DNA of 64,000 bases from Alphaproteobacteria bacterium (GCA_963555825.3 CAUVXB020000002.1:1536001-1600000), one strand, 5' to 3'. Shown: positions 37,374 through 48,129, numbered from the stretch's first letter. The notes: generated by a model from the sequence alone, not told the origin. Translations and numbers: made by a program.

Positions 37374-38408
37374 TCATGCGGTCCCCTCAGTTGCGGGTCG
37401 GTGAGCGCGGTAGGCCTCGCCACGAGTCATGATGACCCAGGCGATCCGCGCGGCCTTGTTGGCCATGGCCACGGCGACCAGCTTGTTGGGCTTGCTTACC
37501 AGCAAGTTGGTGATCCAGGGGTGAACCTCGGGCTTGCGCCGTGCCGATTGAAGCTGTGATGTCATGCCGATCACCAGCAGACGGCGAAGATAGCGGTCCG
37601 CCATCTTGGAGATGCGTCCCATGCGATCCTTGCCGGCGCTGGAATCGGCCTTGGGCGTTAGCCCGAGCGAGGCGGCAAACTGGCGAGCCGATGTGAACCG
37701 GTGCGGATCGGTGACCGAGGCTGCCAGCGCCGAGGCGGTGATGTAACCAATCCCCGGAATGGTCGCGAGCCGTTTGGCCAGGTCGTTGCCGCGGAACCAG
37801 GTCTTGATCTCGCCCTCGATCATGGCGACCCGGGCTTGCAACTCGCGGATCTGCTCGGCCAGGGCAATGACGATCTTGCATGCCAGCGGGGGAATGTCCG
37901 GCACCACTCCTTCGACAAGCTGATCGACGAGCCTCAGCGCGTGATGAATGCCTTTGGCCAGCACGATGCCCAACTCGGCCAGCTGGGACCGGATCATGTT
38001 GACCAGCTGGGTGCGCTGGCCGACCAGCAGATCCCGTGTTCGGTGGAGCGCCAGGACCGATTGCTGCTCGGCCGACTTGATCGCGACGAACCGCATCGTG
38101 GGGCGCGTCACCGCCTCGCAGATCGCCTCCGCATCGGCGGCGTCGGTCTTGCCGCGCTTGACGTATGGTTTGACGTAGATCGGTGGCATCAATTTCACCT
38201 CGTGCCCCAATGCCTGGAGCTCGCGGGACCAGAAGTGGCTCGTGCCGCACGCCTCGATACCGATCAGACACGGTTCCAGCTTGCCGAAGAACGGCATCAT
38301 CTGGCGCCGGCGCAACGATCGGCGGACGATGACCTTGCCGGTGCTGTCAATGCCGTGGACTTGGAAAACGTTCTTGGCCAGATCGAGGCCGACAGTGGTT
38401 ACTTTCAT
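37374..38408 (-). CDS. IS110 family DEDD recombinase/transposase
   Basis: GLDLAK, IEAC, KTDAADAEA, IPGIG, SSAGK; intact ORF. Confidence 0.96.
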   Translation of the reverse strand: MKVTTVGLDLAKNVFQVHGIDSTGKVIVRRSLRRRQMMPFFGKLEPCLIGIEACGTSHFWSRELQALGHEVKLMPPIYVKPYVKRGKTDAADAEAICEAVTRPTMRFVAIKSAEQQSVLALHRTRDLLVGQRTQLVNMIRSQLAELGIVLAKGIHHALRLVDQLVEGVVPDIPPLACKIVIALAEQIRELQARVAMIEGEIKTWFRGNDLAKRLATIPGIGYITASALAASVTDPHRFTSARQFAASLGLTPKADSSAGKDRMGRISKMADRYLRRLLVIGMTSQLQSARRKPEVHPWITNLLVSKPNKLVAVAMANKAARIAWVIMTRGEAYRAHRPATEGTA

Positions 38409-38656
38409 GGCGGATAGCTCCTCTTGCTCGTGGTTGATAACAACCACCACTTTGGCATCTCGGTGCCGGGAGCGGGAGCCATCCACCCCATCTGCTAGTG
38501 GGGGCAAAGTGAAAGGTGTTTGGCGGCGGCCCCGACTCCTGGTGTCAGCCAATTCTGGACCTTCACGTCTGGTCGTTAGACTCGCCTAGCCACGTTCCAT
38601 ATACTGCAGCCCACAACCAAAACGTTTCGGGGGAGGTTCTGGTGCCGCGACCGGGC

Positions 38657-39864: not shown

Positions 39865-40005
39865 AGGTTTCGCCAATGGCCGCCTCGGGTCGACAGCCGG
39901 AGTGCCGACGGCCCCGCGCCAAGGTCTGCCGTTGGGCGCAACGCAGACATGACCCGGCGAAAAGCGGACGTCCTGGGTGTCGGTTCGGCGGGATGCCAAA
40001 CCAGG
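39865..40005 (-). repeat. ATGTCTGC-type repeat (family D), right island border
   Basis: Inverted homologue of 35370-35505; GCAGACAT at 39943-39950. Confidence 0.75.
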
Positions 40006-40081
40006 ACTCCGGCCGAATTCGGTTGCATTCGCCGGCGTTGGTCGCGAGGATTCGGCCAGTGCAGTTTGCGGGGGTCGGCCC

Positions 40082-40933
40082 ATGACACCGGACGCCGCCG
40101 ATATCGTCGATACCGAGACCTACCCGGTCGATCGGCCGGGCACGCCGCGTTACGCGGCGATGATCGCCGACGTCCGCGCCGAACTCGGCGAGGTCGGCTG
40201 CGCGCCGCTCGCCGGCTTCGTGCGCGCGGACAGGGTCGGCGCGCTCATTGCCGAGGCCGACCGGGTGGCGCCACTGGCGCACCGCTCGTTCAACCGCACC
40301 AATGCCTATTTTTCCGAAGACGACCCGACGCTGCCCGCCAGCCACCCGCTGCGCCGCTTCTATGACCGCTCGAACGCCTTCGTGCCGGCCGACAACTTCG
40401 GCGCCGCGAGCCCCTTGCGCGCGATCTATCAGTGGGCGCCGTTCATGCCGTTCATCCGCGACGCGCTGGGCGGGGCGGAAATCCACCGCTACGCCGATCC
40501 GCTGGCCGATGTCATCATCAACGCGGTCGAGCCGGGCGGCGGCTTCCCCTGGCACTTCGACACTAACGACTACACGGTGACGCTGGCGATCCAGAACGCC
40601 GAGCGCGGCGGCCTGTTCGAATACCGCCCTAACTTGCGGACCGCCGAGGACGAGAACTACGACGGCGTCCAGGCGATCCTCGACGGCGGTCGCGACGGCG
40701 TCCGCTCGCTGGCGCTTCGGCCCGGCGATCTGCAGATCTTCAAGGGGCGCTTCTCGCTGCATCGGGTGTCGCCGACCGAGGGCGCGCGGCCGCGCTACGT
40801 CGGCATCTATTCCTTCGTCGACGCGCCCGGCATGGTCGGCCGCGTCGAGCGCACCCGCCAACTCTACGGCCGCGTCCTGCCGATCCACCGCGACCGCGAT
40901 GCGGCGGCACGCGCCGACGGGCTGCGGGACTGA
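40082..40933 (+). CDS. Fe(II)/2-oxoglutarate oxygenase (HalD/BesD-like fold, HxD hydroxylase type)
   Basis: FPWHFD, GGLFEY, PGDLQIFKG..SLHRV, R motif. Confidence 0.8.
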   Translation: MTPDAADIVDTETYPVDRPGTPRYAAMIADVRAELGEVGCAPLAGFVRADRVGALIAEADRVAPLAHRSFNRTNAYFSEDDPTLPASHPLRRFYDRSNAFVPADNFGAASPLRAIYQWAPFMPFIRDALGGAEIHRYADPLADVIINAVEPGGGFPWHFDTNDYTVTLAIQNAERGGLFEYRPNLRTAEDENYDGVQAILDGGRDGVRSLALRPGDLQIFKGRFSLHRVSPTEGARPRYVGIYSFVDAPGMVGRVERTRQLYGRVLPIHRDRDAAARADGLRD

Positions 40934-40943
40934 TTGGTTACGG

Positions 40944-41068
40944 CCACCTTTACTGCGTAAAGGTGGCCTGCGCTCAATCGCCGCGCATGCTTCCGCCGAA
41001 CGGTCGGCGGCCCGCAGTCGCGGGCTGGAAGGTTTCAATTAGTACGAATCGACTCGATTATGCGCTCA
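40944..41068 (-). repeat. Repeat family A, copy 2 (internally shortened)
   Basis: GCGCTCAATCGCCGCGCA and GCCGAACGGTCGGCGGCCC cores; end overlaps the Lrp stop codon. Confidence 0.8.
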
Positions 41069-41539
41069 CAACGCATAATCGACCGGCAGCGCCGTCGTGT
41101 GCTTGATGCGCTCCATGGCGAAGGTCGAGCTGACGTCCGACAGCTCGACGGTGGCGATGAGGCGCTGGTAGATCGCGTCGTAGCCGGCGATGTCGGGCAC
41201 CACGACGCGCATCAGGTAGTCGATGTCGCCGCTCATGCGGTAGAGCTCGACGATCTCGGGGATGGCGGCGACCGCGGCGGCGAACTTCTCGAGCCAGGCG
41301 GCGTTGTGCTGGGCGGTTCTGATGTGGACGAAGACGGTGACGCCGAGGTTGAGCTTGTCGGGGTCCAAGAGCGCGACGCGGCCGGCGATGACGCCCTCGC
41401 GCTCGAGCCGCTGGATGCGCCGCCAACACGGCGTCGTCGACAAGCCGACCCGCTCGGCGATCTCGGCGACCGGCATCGTCGCGTCGCGTTGCAGGCATAT
41501 GAGAATCTTGCGGTCGATCGTATCGAGAGAGGTTTTCAT
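41066..41539 (-). CDS. Lrp/AsnC family transcriptional regulator (DecR-like)
   Basis: LDTIDRKIL...GLSTTPCWRRIQRLE; YRMSGDIDY. Confidence 0.93.
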   Translation of the reverse strand: MKTSLDTIDRKILICLQRDATMPVAEIAERVGLSTTPCWRRIQRLEREGVIAGRVALLDPDKLNLGVTVFVHIRTAQHNAAWLEKFAAAVAAIPEIVELYRMSGDIDYLMRVVVPDIAGYDAIYQRLIATVELSDVSSTFAMERIKHTTALPVDYAL

Positions 41540-41632: not shown

Positions 41633-41899
41633 GTGGCCATGATGAAACGCCTGTTCACCGACCACCCCGCCGCCGTCGGCGAGAGCTACACCGAGCATCT
41701 GGGCATGGCCGGCCGCTTCGCCGGCCGCATGCTGCTCGGCGCCGCCGCCTGTCTAGTTCACGCGCTGTTGCCGTTCCTGTTCGTCAAGACCGGCAGCGCG
41801 ATCATCACCGAGCTTCACGGCCGCATGGTGACCAACCGCGACCGCCTAGAGACGGCGCCGGCGGCCGACCGCGACCTGGCGCCCCAGGGCTCCGACTGA
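41633..41899 (+). CDS. DUF6356-like small protein
   Basis: FTDHP..VGESY.EH...ACLVHA..PFLF..TGS; divergent from Lrp. Confidence 0.8.
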   Translation: MAMMKRLFTDHPAAVGESYTEHLGMAGRFAGRMLLGAAACLVHALLPFLFVKTGSAIITELHGRMVTNRDRLETAPAADRDLAPQGSD

Positions 41900-42000
41900 G
41901 CCGGCGGCCAGTGCTTAACCCCTCGGCACACGACATGCTACGGTAGCGCGCCGGGCCCGTATGCCCGGCGTATCGCGTTCACGGTTGCGTGGAGGGTTCC

Positions 42001-43364
42001 GTGTCGTTGCGTTTGCCGGTGTGGCTTCGGCTGGCCTTGTTGCCGGCGTTTTATTTCGTGCTTGGCGGTGTCGGTTCCGCGCAGGCGGCCGCCGACGGCG
42101 AGCCAATCTTCAAGGTCCTGCAGTTCTACGGTCTCGGCGCCAAGGAAATCGATGCCAAGACCGAGAGTGTCGACGACGGACTGGCCTTGCCGGGACTCGA
42201 CGACATCAGCGACGCCGACATTCTCGCCAGCGAAGCGTTGCGCAAGGCGATCCGAAAATTTCACGACGACAAGGGGATCAACCGCGGCAAGTGGTCGGTC
42301 ATCAAGGCCGAGATCGAGCGGATCAGGGATATGCGGATTCTCGCGCGCACCGGCAACCGCGTGAACCTGAGGGTCGACTATCGATGGCGGCTGACCGAGT
42401 GGAGCTCACAGGGCGGCCACGACAGCGCCGAAGTCCTGGTCGAGGTGATCCCGAGCTTCTCGAACGAGACCTACGACCGCGAGCGCTATGGCGAGGCGCT
42501 GGCGGTCGAGGATTCCTACTTCGCCGACGTCGCCCGCGAGATCGCCGATCTCGGACTGGCGGCGGGCCACGACGACCGCGAATGCTTCCACAACTATCAT
42601 TCGCCCAATCCCTGCATCGAATCGATCCCGTTGTTCGAGCGCTTCGCCGCGCGACACGGGTTCGAGTTGAGCGTCGATGCCGCCTACATGTTCCAGGCCT
42701 TCGTGCGCGGCGAGTACGGCCGCTCCGACCGGCTCTACGCCCGCGCCAAGGGCTACACGCTGCCAACATATGAGGGCGTCGGCACCGAGGTCGCCGCGCT
42801 TGGCCTGCGCGACCACATGAACGGGGGCGGGGAATTCCCGAATTGCGACTACAACTACTACTCGCCCAATCCCTGTGCCGGCGTTATCCGGCTGTGGCAG
42901 GACTTCGCCGAGCGCCATGGCCTCGGCCTGTCGCGCACCAGCGCCGACATGTTCGAGGCCTATGTCGAGGGCGCTTATCGCCGGGGTGACCGCCTGTACC
43001 GCGCCGCCAAAGGCATCGCCGAGAACGATTACATCGGCCCCGGCGTGGCGGTCATGGGCTCGGCCTCGATCCCTCATTCGACCTCGACCGCGAATGCCGG
43101 CACGACCCGACCTCGCCGAATCGCTGCGTCACCTCGATCGTCGAGCTCGAGGAATTCGCCGCCGAACACGGCCTGCCGCTCGACCGCGACACCGCCGAGA
43201 TCTTCCAGGCCTATATCCGCCACCAGATCCGCAAGGGCGATGAAATGTACGCGCGCGCCAAGGGCATCCCGCTCGAGGCTGTCGGCGACCCGGACTACCA
43301 GCCGTTCGAGCCGCCCGAGCTGATCATCGACATCGTGCCGAGGCGCCGATCACCGGCGCCCTAA
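42001..43364 (+). pseudogene. Secreted Cys-pair repeat protein, paralog 1 (1-bp frameshift near 43057, real or sequencing error)
   Basis: GGAGG RBS, signal peptide ending AQA; ATGGGCTC vs ATGGCGCTC in paralog 2; shifted frame matches paralog 2 to TAA 43364. Confidence 0.8.
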
Positions 43365-43481
43365 GCGAGACAGATAGCGCCTCTCAGTCTTTGCTAATAT
43401 GGCGTTTCGGATGTCGCTATCCGGCGGTCATGACGTGAGAACGATTGGAATCAACCCGTGTCGATACGGCGATCTCGAGGG

Positions 43482-44843
43482 GTGTGGCGTGTGGCTCGAG
43501 TGGTTCGCCTTGGGGCGTTTTGGCTCGCGCTTGCCTGTCCGCCGGCGGTCGCCGGCATGGACGACGAAGCGGTTTACAAGGTCCTGCAGTTTTACGGCCT
43601 CGGCGGTACGGAGATTGATCCGAAGACGCAAGGCGTCGAAGGTGGCGTGTTCCTACCGGGGATCGACGCGATCAGCGACGAAGAAATCCTCGACAGCAAG
43701 GTTCTTCGCACGGCTATCCGCCGCCATTTCAGGAGCAAGGGCATTGCTCATCGCAAACATCTATACTCGATTAGCGTGATCGAGAAAATTACCGGCGCGA
43801 AGGTGCTCGCGCGCTCGGGGAACCGCGCAAATTTGAAAATCGACTATTATTGGATTGCGATCGATCAGCCTAACGTCAGTGGCCATGACCGCGCCGAGGT
43901 GCTGATCGAGATCATCGCCAACTTCTCGAATGAAGTCTACGAGCGCGAGCGTTACGGCCAGCCGCTGGTGATCGAGGATTCATACTTCCCGGACATCGCC
44001 CGCGAAATCGCGGACCTCGGGCTCGCGGTGGGTCGCGACGATCGCGAATGCGTGCACAACTATCATTCGCCCAACCCCTGCGTCGAATCGATCCCGTTGT
44101 TCGAGCGCTTCGCCGCGCAACACGGTCTGCCGTTGGATGTCGACGCGGCGTACATGTTTCAGGCCTTCGTGCGTGGCGAGTACGGCCGCGCCGACCGGCT
44201 CTACGCCCGCGCCAAGGGCTACACGCTGCCAACATACGAGGGCATCGGCACCGAGGTCGCCGCGCTCGTCCTCGAGGTGTATGCGACACACTCGCAAGAG
44301 AGCGCGCACAAGGAGGGCGGCTGCCAGTTCAACTACTATGACGCCAACCCGTGTCGCGGCGTGATCCCGGTATGGCGGGCGTTCGCCGCGCGCCACGGGC
44401 TCGGCCTCTCGCGCCTCAGCGCCGACTTGTTCCAGGCCTACGCCGACGGCGCCTATCGCCGCGGCGATCGCCTGTACCGCATCGCCAAGGGCATCGCCGC
44501 GCCTGACTACACCGGTCCCGGCGTCGCGGTCATGGCGCTCGGCCTCGACCCGTCCTTCGATCTCGACCGCGAATGCCGGCACGACCCGACCTCGCCCAAT
44601 CGCTGCGTCACCTCGATCGTCGAGCTCGAGGAATTCGCCGCCCAACACGGCCTGCCGCTCGACTTCAATACCGCCCGGGTGTTCCAGGCCTATGTGCGCC
44701 ACGACACGGTCAGGGGCGACAGGCTGTATGCGCGCGCCAAGGGCATCCCGCTCGAGGCTGTCGGCGACCCGGACTACCAACCGTTCGAGCCACCGGAGCT
44801 GATCATCGACATCGTACCGGGCGACGCGAGCACGACACCGTGA
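43482..44843 (+). CDS. Secreted Cys-pair repeat protein, paralog 2 (unknown family)
   Basis: Signal peptide; N-domain plus three ~85-aa repeats CxxxxxxxNxC...FAAxHGL...FQA[FY]...DRLYxxAKG. Confidence 0.88.
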
Positions 44844-45043
44844 GCGTCGCCGACCACGATCGCCGTCCGGGTGGTTTCGGCGTCCCGGCCAGCCGGTGGC
44901 GCGGCCTGAGCGTGGCCGCCTTTCTGTCGTTCGCGATGCACGCCGCGGCGATCCTGCTGGTTTGGCAATTCGTTCCCTTGCTGAGGGAATTCGAGCCCTA
45001 CGAACCCACGCCGATCCCGGTCGAGATCGTCGTCGCCCAGACC

Positions 45044-45379
<336 letters not shown>

Positions 45380-45689
45380 GTACCAGAGCCCGAATCGGAA
45401 CCTCAGCCGGTCGTCCTGCTCGAGCCGGTGCTGCTCCCCGATCTGGATCCGGTGCTCGATCTGGCGCCCGTGACGGAACCGGCGCTGGTTCCCGAACCGG
45501 AACCCGAGCCCGAACCCGAGCCGCTACCCGAGCCGCCGCCGCCCGAGCCGGAGATCGTCGCGGTGCCGCCACCACCGCCGGGGCCGAAACCGCTGCCGCC
45601 GGCGCCGCCGATCGTCGAGCAACCGGCGCCGCTGCCCGAGCAGCCGCCCGAGCCTCCTGCGCCCGAGCCCGTGGCCGAGGAGCCGCCGC

Positions 45690-47140
45690 GGCGATGTCCC
45701 GCCCAATGTTGAAAAGTGCGAGATAGGCATCGTCTGATCGAGAGGCTACGCGGCCACCTCGATGTCTTCAATGACGGACTTTGCTCCGGCCTTTCTCACC
45801 GCCTCCCGCAGGGCGGCGTCAAGGACGGGGAGCTGGCGGTAGGCCTTGAGGCGGCGGAAGGTCTTTTGCGCCTCCAAGAGGCCGGCGGCGGTCCAACGCA
45901 GCGCCATCTCGGCGTTGCGCCAGCGCTTGACGTTCCGCTGCACCGTCCGGACGGTGCCGATCGCGTTCTCGATGGCGTTGGTGCAAGCCAGCGAGTGTCG
46001 AAGTTGCGGCGGGAGGCCGAGCCGGATCACGGTCAGGATATCGTCCAGGCCCTCCAGGATCGAGCCCGAGACGCCGGGTGCGTCATGCTCCAGACGGCGG
46101 GCGAGGTTGCGCAAGAGCCGTTCGGCCTTGGCCGCGTCGTCCTGCTGCCAGGCCTGCCGCAAGACCTTCCTGACGCCGGCATGGAGGCTCTCGTCCAGCC
46201 GGTCCGTGATGTTGCGCCCCTTGTGCACCTGGCAGCGCTGGAGGGCCGCCGCCCGCCCGAAGGTCCGCCGGATCGCCTTCGAGAGCGCCTTGGCGCCGTC
46301 GACGATGTAGAGCCGAGGCCGTTCGGGATCGAGACCGCGCTCGATCAGGTTGTCGAGCATGGCTTGCACCGTGGCCGCGTTCTCCGTCGCGCCCTCGGCC
46401 AGGCCCAGCACGTGCTTCGCGCCGCCGGTGTCGATGCCGATCGCCGCCACCATCAGGTGATCGCCGACATGGAGCCCGTCGATCTGGAGCACCACGAGAT
46501 CGAGATCGTCGAGCGGGCTCGCCAGCCAGGCCTTCAGCTTGCTTCGCGTCAACGCCACGAAACGGCGCGAGACCGCCGACTTCGAGGTTGCGTCACCCGA
46601 TGCCGCCGGCAGATCGCCGCCCGCATCGTCCGGCAGGCGCACCGCGCGGGCATACTTGCGGGTCGAGACGTTGATCACCATCAGATTCATCGCCCAGGCT
46701 TGCAAGAGTTCGGGTTCCGACAGCAGCTCCCAACTCGGCAGGCTCATCTCCCGACCCGCGAAGTCCCGCACCCGAGGGCGCTCGACCTTCACTTTGCCGC
46801 CGTGGTAGGCGATCTCGCTCCGGGTCGTGCCCCATCGATGGCCCTTGCGCTCGCCCGAGCGGGCGTGGCGCGAACCGCACAAGGCTTCCGCGTCCGCCGA
46901 CATCATCTCGTTCAAAGACTCGAGGCCCGCCAAAAGGCAGAAGCGATCGACGCTCATGCGCAGATCGTCGAAGGCCTCCGGCATCGATGGCAAGAGCCGA
47001 CAGGATGGTTCCGAGGAACGGTCGTTGCGTGTAGTCTTGGTCATGGCGTCGTTCTCCTTGATGGAATCAGCACCCAGAGCCTAGCGGCTCCAGGCGGACG
47101 ACGCCTACTTCAGCTTTTCAACAGAGCCCGGGACATCCCC
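45690..47140 (-). mobile_element. IS256 family element
   Basis: TIRs GGCGATGTCCCG..TGTTGAAAAG / CTTTTCAACA..CGGGACATCCCC; 8-bp TSD GCCGCCGC at 45682-45689 and 47141-47148. Confidence 0.95.
45746..47044 (-). CDS. IS256 family transposase
   Basis: QIDG, IVDGAKAL, QRCQVHK, TNAIE; intact. Confidence 0.95.
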   Translation of the reverse strand: MTKTTRNDRSSEPSCRLLPSMPEAFDDLRMSVDRFCLLAGLESLNEMMSADAEALCGSRHARSGERKGHRWGTTRSEIAYHGGKVKVERPRVRDFAGREMSLPSWELLSEPELLQAWAMNLMVINVSTRKYARAVRLPDDAGGDLPAASGDATSKSAVSRRFVALTRSKLKAWLASPLDDLDLVVLQIDGLHVGDHLMVAAIGIDTGGAKHVLGLAEGATENAATVQAMLDNLIERGLDPERPRLYIVDGAKALSKAIRRTFGRAAALQRCQVHKGRNITDRLDESLHAGVRKVLRQAWQQDDAAKAERLLRNLARRLEHDAPGVSGSILEGLDDILTVIRLGLPPQLRHSLACTNAIENAIGTVRTVQRNVKRWRNAEMALRWTAAGLLEAQKTFRRLKAYRQLPVLDAALREAVRKAGAKSVIEDIEVAA

Positions 47141-47709
47141 GCCGCCGCCGCCCGAGCCTGTGACCGAGGAACCGCCACCCGAGGTCGTCGCGGTCGAGCC
47201 CGAGGAGTCCGAAGACGAGATGTCGCCCGCGCTCGCCGCCATCATGGCCGCCGTTCAGGCGCAGATGCTGCCGTGCTGGCAGGACGACCCATCGCGCCGC
47301 GCCACGACGCCGCCGGTGCTGATCGACGTGACGCTCAACCGCAACGGCTCGGTGCGTCGGGCGCAAATCCAGGACCTCGAGAAGCTGCGCGCCGACCCGG
47401 CGATGGGTGGCGTTGCGGAGGCGGCGCGCGGCGCGGTCCTCGCCTGCAGCCCTTTCGACCTGCCGCGCCGCGACTATCGGCTGTGGCAGCAGATGACGTT
47501 GCGCTTTTACCCGCCGTAACGGCGGCGCGCCGGCACGGGATGGCGGCAGTGCCGCGGCGTAACCGCGGCGTGACTTGGGCGCCGCGCCCGCGGGCAGCGC
47601 CATGTCGATCGCGTCGCGCCTCAGCCGACCGTAACGCGTCGGCCGTCGACCGCGACGTCAATAATTTCGTGCCGTCCCTCTGCGTCGGCGGCCGCCATGG
47701 CGGTGGATC

Positions 47710-48129
<420 letters not shown>

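Follow-up and report, generated by a model that had tools for sequence, protein, structure and literature searches.

What links two tandem genes for secreted, cysteine-containing repeat proteins to a gene of TolA/TonB type that begins inside the second of them, when no exbBD, tolQR or receptor gene is found nearby? The question is posed by a locus at 42001-47519 in a stretch of 64,000 nucleotides (nt) from an alphaproteobacterial genome (GCA_963555825.3, CAUVXB020000002.1:1536001-1600000). The whole stretch is referred to as the window, plain coordinates are positions in it, and the genome holding it is G000. With modest confidence we favour the view that marine Alphaproteobacteria possess a conserved envelope module of two genes, of which the locus is a degenerate copy, and that the module encodes a Tol-like pulling pair that would share the TolQR stator of the cell. 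The case is built on the pairing of the two genes across lineages, the affinity of the TolA-like protein, the stators encoded in the carrier genomes and a short tail common to the repeat proteins.

Conserved pairing of repeat and TolA-like genes

The pairing was followed by hmmsearch, with one profile for the repeat and another for the C-terminal domain (C-domain) of the TolA-like protein, over loci drawn from collections of genomes and metagenomes. Downstream sequence is available for 11 foreign loci (L019-L026, L029, which equals L032, L031, and L030, the 5' half of which is probably L027), and in all 11 the next gene downstream of the repeat gene, on the same strand, is TolA-like; it overlaps the repeat gene or begins within about 50 nt of its end. 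All 11 partners possess a Ser-x3-His anchor, as does the window gene, together with an acidic or proline-rich linker and a C-domain of the pattern CW...C[SAG]P[YF]xLP...W...[RE]F. Two other loci are uninformative downstream: L018 is short, contains Ns and is an apparent chimera after its second gene, and L028 ends inside the repeat gene. The records are labelled as metagenome-assembled genomes of Rhodovibrionaceae, Rhodospirillales, Kiloniellales, Kiloniellaceae, Pseudomonadota and Alphaproteobacteria, and L028 as Acidimicrobiia.

The same arrangement exists in a second subfamily. The genomes G013 and G014 each have a third C-domain gene, preceded by the gene for a small secreted protein with two repeats, no N-terminal domain (N-domain) and the C-terminal sequence LIIRVYPG; the pairing was found in 2/2 of these loci, and both TolA-like partners have the SxxxH anchor. 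Pairing persists though the repeat proteins are only ~30% identical. An all-against-all comparison of the locus flanks revealed no other open reading frame (ORF) common to the lineages. An earlier note on this DNA, made from the sequence alone, had named the neighbourhood of repeat homologues as a check on its proposal, and the homologues do adjoin TolA-like genes in every one of the 11 loci. Among the papers listed by a literature search on TolA paralogues and orphan TolA-like proteins, none concerns such a module, judged by titles and abstract openings.

A TolA-like paralogue and its available motor

Judged by its C-domain, the window gene is a TolA-like paralogue, closer to TolA than to TonB. 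The C-domain is 44% identical to that of the housekeeping TolA of G000 (tblastn E 1.8e-7). Aligned with three homologues it finds the same protein at E 3e-16, and the C-domain profile finds the housekeeping TolA in five of the five other carrier genomes (E 1e-14 to 1e-30). The only PDB matches of this profile, 6s3w and 1lr0, are both TolA (E 0.16-0.18). Among curated models, TIGR02794 (tolA_full) matches the C-domain at E 7.9e-6 with 25.3 bits, under its cut-off of 59.45. On the TonB side, the gene has no match to PF03544 (TonB_C), scores 19.3 bits with TIGR01352, under the cut-off of 27.1, and reaches 41.7 bits with NF008084 (TonB) over residues 23-120, where the cut-off is 315. Since its scores fall short of the curated models for TolA and TonB and its relatives are TolA proteins, we name the product a TolA-like paralogue, neither TolA nor TonB. 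Of the former description as TolA/TonB-like, the TolA side fits better: the C-domain is nearest to TolA, and neither PF03544 nor any TonB system was detected. A maximum-likelihood tree built from 20 C-domains places the six from housekeeping TolA apart from the 14 module-linked ones, with 97/95 support for the split.

The lack of exbBD, tolQR and receptor genes around the locus was correctly seen: no ExbD/TolR, ExbB/TolQ or Plug-domain gene is present in the window. A ybgC-tolQ-tolR-tolA-tolB-pal cluster with its own TolA of 302 amino acids (aa) is located at C2:1417000-1427000 of G000, approximately 157 kb from the window gene. The only ExbD-family match in the genome is the tolR gene of this cluster (C2:1423101-1423457, ~113 kb before the window start), with one adjacent tolQ. 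G000 (6.0 Mb, 99.3% complete) yielded no TonB_C, no Plug and no second ExbD-family gene, and appears, from its gene content, to lack TonB-dependent uptake altogether. The five other carriers have 1, 4, 1, 1 and 1 ExbD-family genes, and in each of the five the best-scoring one adjoins the housekeeping tolA, away from the module. The idea that an orphan transducer is dedicated to the repeat proteins and borrows a motor in trans is well supported by the pairing in both subfamilies (11/11 and 2/2), by the separate C-domain group and by the single ExbD/TolR gene in G000 and in 4/5 of the other carriers.

The repeat proteins and their domains

The intact repeat gene of the locus, paralogue 2, occupies 43458-44843 on the plus strand and encodes 461 aa from a GTG codon. 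Its product is composed of a leader, an alpha+beta N-domain (approximately residues 58-156), three repeats (43983-44234, 44235-44507 and 44508-44768), a linker and the tail ELIIDIVPG, the tail lying within 44769-44840. The earlier note had described tandem paralogues with an N-domain and three repeats of ~85 aa; this architecture stands, as does the Cys pair, C-x9-C being the same as its C-x7-N-x-C, but paralogue 1 turned out to be frameshifted. Leaders of the repeat proteins were judged by eye and from the N-terminal helix in the structural model. A lipoprotein signal in paralogue 2 (LALAC) was considered and rejected, as the sequence departs from a lipobox and homologues lack the Cys.

Repeats are ~85-90 aa long, three per paralogue. 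An alignment of 21 repeats (nine from the three G000 paralogues and twelve taken one apiece from diverse homologues) has the two Cys of C-x9-C and one Asp as its invariant positions, and the consensus FAxRHGLP...MFxAY...GDRLYAxAKG. The AlphaFold2 model of a single repeat (predicted local distance difference test, pLDDT, 88.9; predicted template modelling score 0.82) consists of a short helix, a Cys-closed loop and three helices; the paired Cys are predicted to form one disulfide. For full-length paralogue 2 the pLDDT was 69.5.

The view that the repeat matches no recognised family was upheld in Pfam, NCBIfam and PDB sequences. Pfam returned no family for either paralogue and, for single repeats (n=21), four one-off matches with a best E of 0.054; NCBIfam gave no meaningful match to the repeat proteins, and the best E in the PDB sequence search with the repeat was 1.2. 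Structural comparison, a check that the earlier note had also proposed, led to the same result, with no characterised fold matched by Foldseek for the single-repeat model (best E 3.0) and nothing credible in PDB for the model of the full-length protein (best E 0.053). VIA-align of the single-repeat model with 48,161 representative chains gave at best a Z of 5.0 (root-mean-square deviation 3.5 over 65 aligned residues), which is in the noise range by the tool's own rating, and the ESM Atlas gave nothing usable (best 0.79). The N-domain (residues 58-156) showed weak similarity (Z 4-4.9, VIA-align of the full model) to Tim44, ARC6, VirB8/DotI, cystatin and NTF2 folds, a hint that it may be an alpha+beta cone of NTF2/cystatin-like type.

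The family is small: a search of 5.8 billion clustered proteins gave 16 matches, and one of 1.84 billion proteins gave 44 cluster representatives (E <= 0.001). Its members differ in architecture, with no, one or two N-domains and two to approximately four repeats. A contig scan with an alignment of close homologues gave 13 pattern matches and no relatives, and 12 other genomes of the same taxonomic family contained no member of the repeat family, the one weak match involving the N-domain only. By these comparisons the repeat defines what we take to be a new, very rare periplasmic repeat domain.

G000 contains a third paralogue at L005 6544-7977, in which the leader, N-domain, three repeats and tail are kept. 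It is followed by the gene for an unrelated 582-aa secreted protein (L005 8121-9869, on C2 of G000) with an N-terminal hydrophobic leader and no Pfam or NCBIfam match, which occupies the slot where other loci hold the TolA-like gene. Weak relatives of the N-domain, single or doubled, were also detected in G000 with the family profile (E 7e-7 to 5e-5), at C1:145084-147480, C1:840433-843102, C2:800203-802872 and C2:1111168-1111698. They form the C-termini of frames of 798-889 aa, caspase-type by eye, with YxAYLxxFPxGxF repeats, and also occur in a 176-aa secreted protein.

A C-terminal tail similar to the TolA box

All repeat proteins end, after a variable linker, in a short motif, [LF]-x-[IV]-[DEP]-[IV]-x-P or, in the two-repeat form, LIIRVYPG. 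It is conserved among proteins with only ~30% identity, and the full-length model assigns it no confident packing, the last 20 residues having a pLDDT of ~44-55. A similar element is known from Tol: PMC7066135 describes the TolB N-terminus of Pseudomonas and E. coli as a 'TolA box', three hydrophobic residues of which mediate its binding to the C-domain of TolA by parallel beta-strand augmentation, and states that TonB captures its partners likewise by beta-strand augmentation. The mature TolB N-termini of the carrier genomes (ELKIDITRG, ELFVDVTGP, QLTVDITKG, ELRIDVGQG and ELEIDITEG) conform to x-L-x-[IV]-[DE]-[IV]. Likeness to the tail is closest in G000, with ELKIDITRG for TolB and ELIIDIVPG for the repeat proteins, and in G013/G014, with ELFVDVT and ERFVVEI, respectively. 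Six-frame translation of G000 gives 11383 ORFs of 200 aa or more; 19 of them have [LF]x[IV][DE][IV] within their last 16 residues, and the two intact paralogues are the only ones in which it is followed by xP at the C-terminus.

Prediction of a complex between repeat 3 with the tail and the C-domain, with an own alignment for each chain, gave a score of 0.48 (runs 0.46, 0.48 and 0.48), which the tool terms 'weak support'; none of the three controls rose above 0.00. The runs shared at least 76% of contacts, the partner pLDDT was at least 66, and the output listed no interface. In calibration, the pass mark was reached by 58/80 solved complexes and 2/110 mismatched pairs; passes at 0.60 or less included only 7/80 solved complexes and both of the passing mismatches. 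The modelling of such a complex, likewise proposed earlier, was therefore favourable in that the pair passed where controls stayed at 0.00, but the score itself is weak. Together with the resemblance to the local TolB termini, this suggests that the TolA-like C-domain probably grips the TolA-box-like tail. A role of the tail as outer-membrane beta-signal was rejected, the protein being helical and the tail ending in Pro instead of an aromatic residue.

Degeneration of the module in the window

The TolA-like gene was thought to be ultra-long, yet it is a gene for ~406 aa split by an insertion sequence (IS) of 1451 bp. Its 5' part (44840-45689, plus strand) begins in the stop codon of paralogue 2: the overlap GTGA, rightly noticed before as the junction with a gene of SxxxH type, is at 44840-44843. 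The product starts with VSVADHD..., followed by a hydrophobic anchor with SFAMH (SxxxH) and by a Glu-Pro linker, the (Glu-Pro)n stretch being encoded by a hexanucleotide tandem array (45042-45402, plus strand; period 6, 60.2 copies). The IS (45690-47140, minus strand) is flanked by an 8-bp target-site duplication, GCCGCCGC, at 45682-45689 on the left and, as GCCGCCGC again, at 47141-47148 on the right. Its terminal inverted repeats (45690-45716 and 47114-47140) are imperfect, with arms of 35 nt and 80% complementarity when the duplication is included. The IS encodes a 432-aa transposase of the IS256 (Mutator-type) family (45746-47044, minus strand; PF00872 E 1.4e-30; NF033543 220.8 bits, cut-off 150), and five full copies (99.9-100% identity) and one partial copy are present in G000, with similarity ending exactly at 45690 and 47140. 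The transposase score above a curated cut-off, the inverted repeats, the 8-bp duplication and the multiple identical copies assign it to the IS256 family, of which the window element is an ordinary member. The 3' part of the TolA-like gene (47149-47519, plus strand) contains the end of the linker and the C-domain (CW...CSPFDLP...W...RF), in an ORF at 47160-47519 whose frame differs from that of the 5' part.

When 1459 bases, the IS plus one duplication copy, are removed, a single open frame of 1221 bases is restored. The frames of homologous partners comprise 358-484 aa, with one exception of 865 aa, measured stop-to-stop, in which the real start is far inside, and in a relative, P0060, the linker runs uninterrupted into a C-domain that is 81% identical. 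An intact TolA/TonB-like protein of ~890 aa from 44840-47519 can be discarded for practical purposes. A plus-strand open frame does lie opposite the transposase (45716-47740), in GC-rich DNA, but the frame of the 5' part enters the IS and stops at 45710-45712, the C-domain ORF is in another frame, and what separates the two parts is an IS with defined ends, flanked by a target duplication and present in identical copies elsewhere; partner size and the direct linker of the relative also speak against it. The ultra-long gene is thus an insertion artefact, owing to an IS256-family element that was read through, and the present gene can only encode, as predicted from its frames, an anchor and linker at most, without the C-domain.

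Paralogue 1 (42001-43364, plus strand) is also broken. It starts at 41989 or 42001 and has the architecture of paralogue 2; the ORF list, three-frame translation and DNA alignment with paralogue 2 place its leader, N-domain and repeats 1-2 in one frame until ~43057, and repeat 3 with the tail ELIIDIVP in the next frame (43056-43361, stop 43362-43364). The alignment has a gap of 1 nt at ~43057, and this missing base puts repeat 3 and the tail out of frame. An intact counterpart of 454 aa, P0003, exists in the protein collection. Contigs of four public runs were compared with the window over 41900-44990. The deletion is present in X15 (depth 12.3) and X18 (depth 90.9). Run X1, labelled as sponge metagenome (depth 9.75), has an extra C at 43057 in a contig that is otherwise identical, and run X5, a more distant relative, likewise continues with C at this position. 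That the frameshift stems from a sequencing error was rejected, as the deletion is carried by both X15 and X18. These two runs are possibly the assembly's own source; the deletion is hence no consensus slip, but its spread is not shown by them.

Two of the three genes at the locus are consequently broken. As the IS separates anchor and linker from the C-domain and paralogue 1 has the 1-nt deletion, the module is most likely inactive in the window strain, and the local copy is probably dead.

Several further observations concern the region. The tandem paralogues are mosaics in which long near-identical tracts alternate with tracts of ~50-60% identity (42680-42920 and 43058-43340 against 44140-44390 and 44530-44820), a pattern that suggests gene conversion between the copies. 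The paralogue-2-like P0007 of a related organism, which shares an 85.6-kb contig with P0005 and P0060, stops abruptly at the repeat-2/repeat-3 junction (..GPGVAV-), the same junction as that of the deletion in paralogue 1. The near-identical tract common to both paralogues opens at this junction as well (alignment columns 1190-1470), which could be a hot spot of recombination or gene conversion, or an assembly artefact. The stretch 42600-43500 is near-identical (sampled-word share 0.78-0.92) in sponge-metagenome runs and in runs of three organisms from several studies, with more distant shares in marine sediment and marine metagenomes.

Matching 8-bp flanks are found for the window copy of the IS256-family element and for the copy at C2:2410520. 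Three of the five full copies (C2:866072, C2:2804658 and C1:1245373) are without them, which hints at rearrangements between copies. An IS110-family transposase (37374-38552, minus strand; PF02371 E 9e-23, PF01548 E 1e-16) is situated ~3.4 kb upstream of the module, and the IS110 and IS256 copies together show this stretch to be a target of mobile elements. Genes for a 2OG-Fe(II) oxygenase/halogenase-like protein (39977-40933; PF23169 E 3.8e-9), an Lrp/AsnC regulator (41066-41539, minus strand) and a DUF6356 protein (41633-41899; E 2.6e-30) are also located upstream; none of the three is kept beside the module in other lineages.

A proposed Tol-like pulling pair and its alternatives

In the mechanism we have in mind, the first gene would provide a secreted periplasmic protein with an optional N-domain, two to four Cys-x9-Cys helical repeats, a flexible linker and the C-terminal strand motif. 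The second, translationally coupled to it or closely spaced, would provide an extra TolA paralogue with an SxxxH anchor, a periplasm-spanning acidic or proline-rich linker and a C-domain resembling domain III of TolA. The anchor would dock into the only TolQR stator of the cell, shared with the housekeeping TolA, and the C-domain would capture the tail of its partner in the manner in which TolA captures the TolA box of TolB, through beta-strand augmentation. The proton-motive force could then pull the repeat protein and, thereby, whatever envelope component the repeats hold. The anatomy of the locus, its breaks, the conserved pairing, the separate C-domain group and the single stator are observed; that the tail is bound, that TolQR drives the pair and that force is transduced are the steps that we infer. 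The full version, a second Tol-like line of force transduction on a single TolQR, in which a helical-repeat protein locked by disulfides is gripped at a C-terminal 'TolA box' by a TolA paralogue dedicated to it, is put forward tentatively, at somewhat less than even confidence.

The proposed pair resembles TolA-TolB in its inner-membrane SxxxH anchor, long periplasmic linker and small C-domain, in the short terminal hydrophobic strand motif of the partner and in having TolQR as the sole stator available. It differs in that its gene lies outside the tolQRA-tolB-pal cluster, with no tol or Pal-like gene beside it, in the Glu-Pro or acidic linker and in the separate grouping of the C-domains. Moreover, the partner is a Cys-pair helical repeat protein and not the beta-propeller TolB, and bears its motif at the C-terminus instead of the N-terminus. 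With TonB it shares the SxxxH anchor and the (Glu-Pro)n spacer; in contrast to TonB systems, the gene is without PF03544, the genome has no ExbD beyond TolR, no TonB_C and no Plug, and the partner is soluble and not an outer-membrane barrel. The gliding machine of Myxococcus, in which the orphan TonB/TolA-like proteins GltG and GltJ use a shared stator, AglRQS, is comparable as a case of additional TolA/TonB-type transducers for special cargo with a TolQR-type motor encoded elsewhere. However, neither a motility complex nor other shared genes surround the module, and its partner family is unrelated.

Several points weigh against a pulling pair of this kind. The loci L019-L024 are mutually 68-90% identical, so that the 11 loci represent approximately eight effectively independent lineages, and the scores of the module C-domains stay below every curated cut-off in Pfam and NCBIfam. 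TolQR is assigned as motor because no other stator was found, the sole basis for this step. The dedication of the transducer to the repeat proteins, as formerly proposed, has an exception in the third G000 paralogue, which has no TolA-like neighbour; since it keeps its tail, either the tail has another use or its TolA is encoded elsewhere. The resemblance of tail and TolB is limited to a short strand-like motif and, within it, to four to five positions, and the acidic position of the tail is Pro in two lineages (PLYVPIHP and PLYVPIFP). The complex score of 0.48 falls in a band that the tool rates as more often wrong than right, and, as a solved TolA-TolB peptide complex exists, the pass may echo this likeness and not binding of the pair's own.

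Some of these points serve an explanation that we regard as rather unlikely, namely that the pair is functional but the tail is not the contact. Binding would then occur via the repeats or the N-domain, or the repeat protein would be a periplasmic regulator, chaperone or anchor, with the tail engaged in cis packing, in recognition by a protease or PDZ domain, or in binding of the housekeeping TolA. The conserved pairing is as strong an argument for this as for a pulling pair, and the tail of the solitary paralogue and the low complex score fit it. Nevertheless, only the tail is common to all architectures, the minimal two-repeat form included; it follows a variable linker without being confidently packed, and it resembles the local TolA box. 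Improbable, in our opinion, is a purely historical adjacency of independent proteins, for example a redundant TolA and an unrelated secreted binding protein. The link between the two proteins is drawn from no experiment, neither of them reaches a curated family threshold and one paralogue stands alone, all of which would suit such a history. It is, however, difficult to reconcile with an adjacency and order that persist at ~30% identity and in two subfamilies, with genes that overlap or lie very close where nothing else around them is conserved, and with partner C-domains that form a group of their own.

Implications for envelope energy transduction

To our knowledge, Tol-Pal and Ton are the two known routes by which proton-motive force is carried to the outer envelope of Gram-negative bacteria. 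The pulling pair favoured here addresses the issue of how many cargoes each type of motor serves and whether one stator can power several transducers. The module is small and open to testing: it offers one clear partner for a TolA paralogue, a brief motif, similar to the N-terminus of the host's TolB, as candidate docking site, and a single possible motor. If the proposal is true, the carriers have no TonB system at all, and the pair would represent the first C-terminal TolA box, the first natural instance of two TolA-type transducers on one stator and a new class of cargo beside TolB-Pal.

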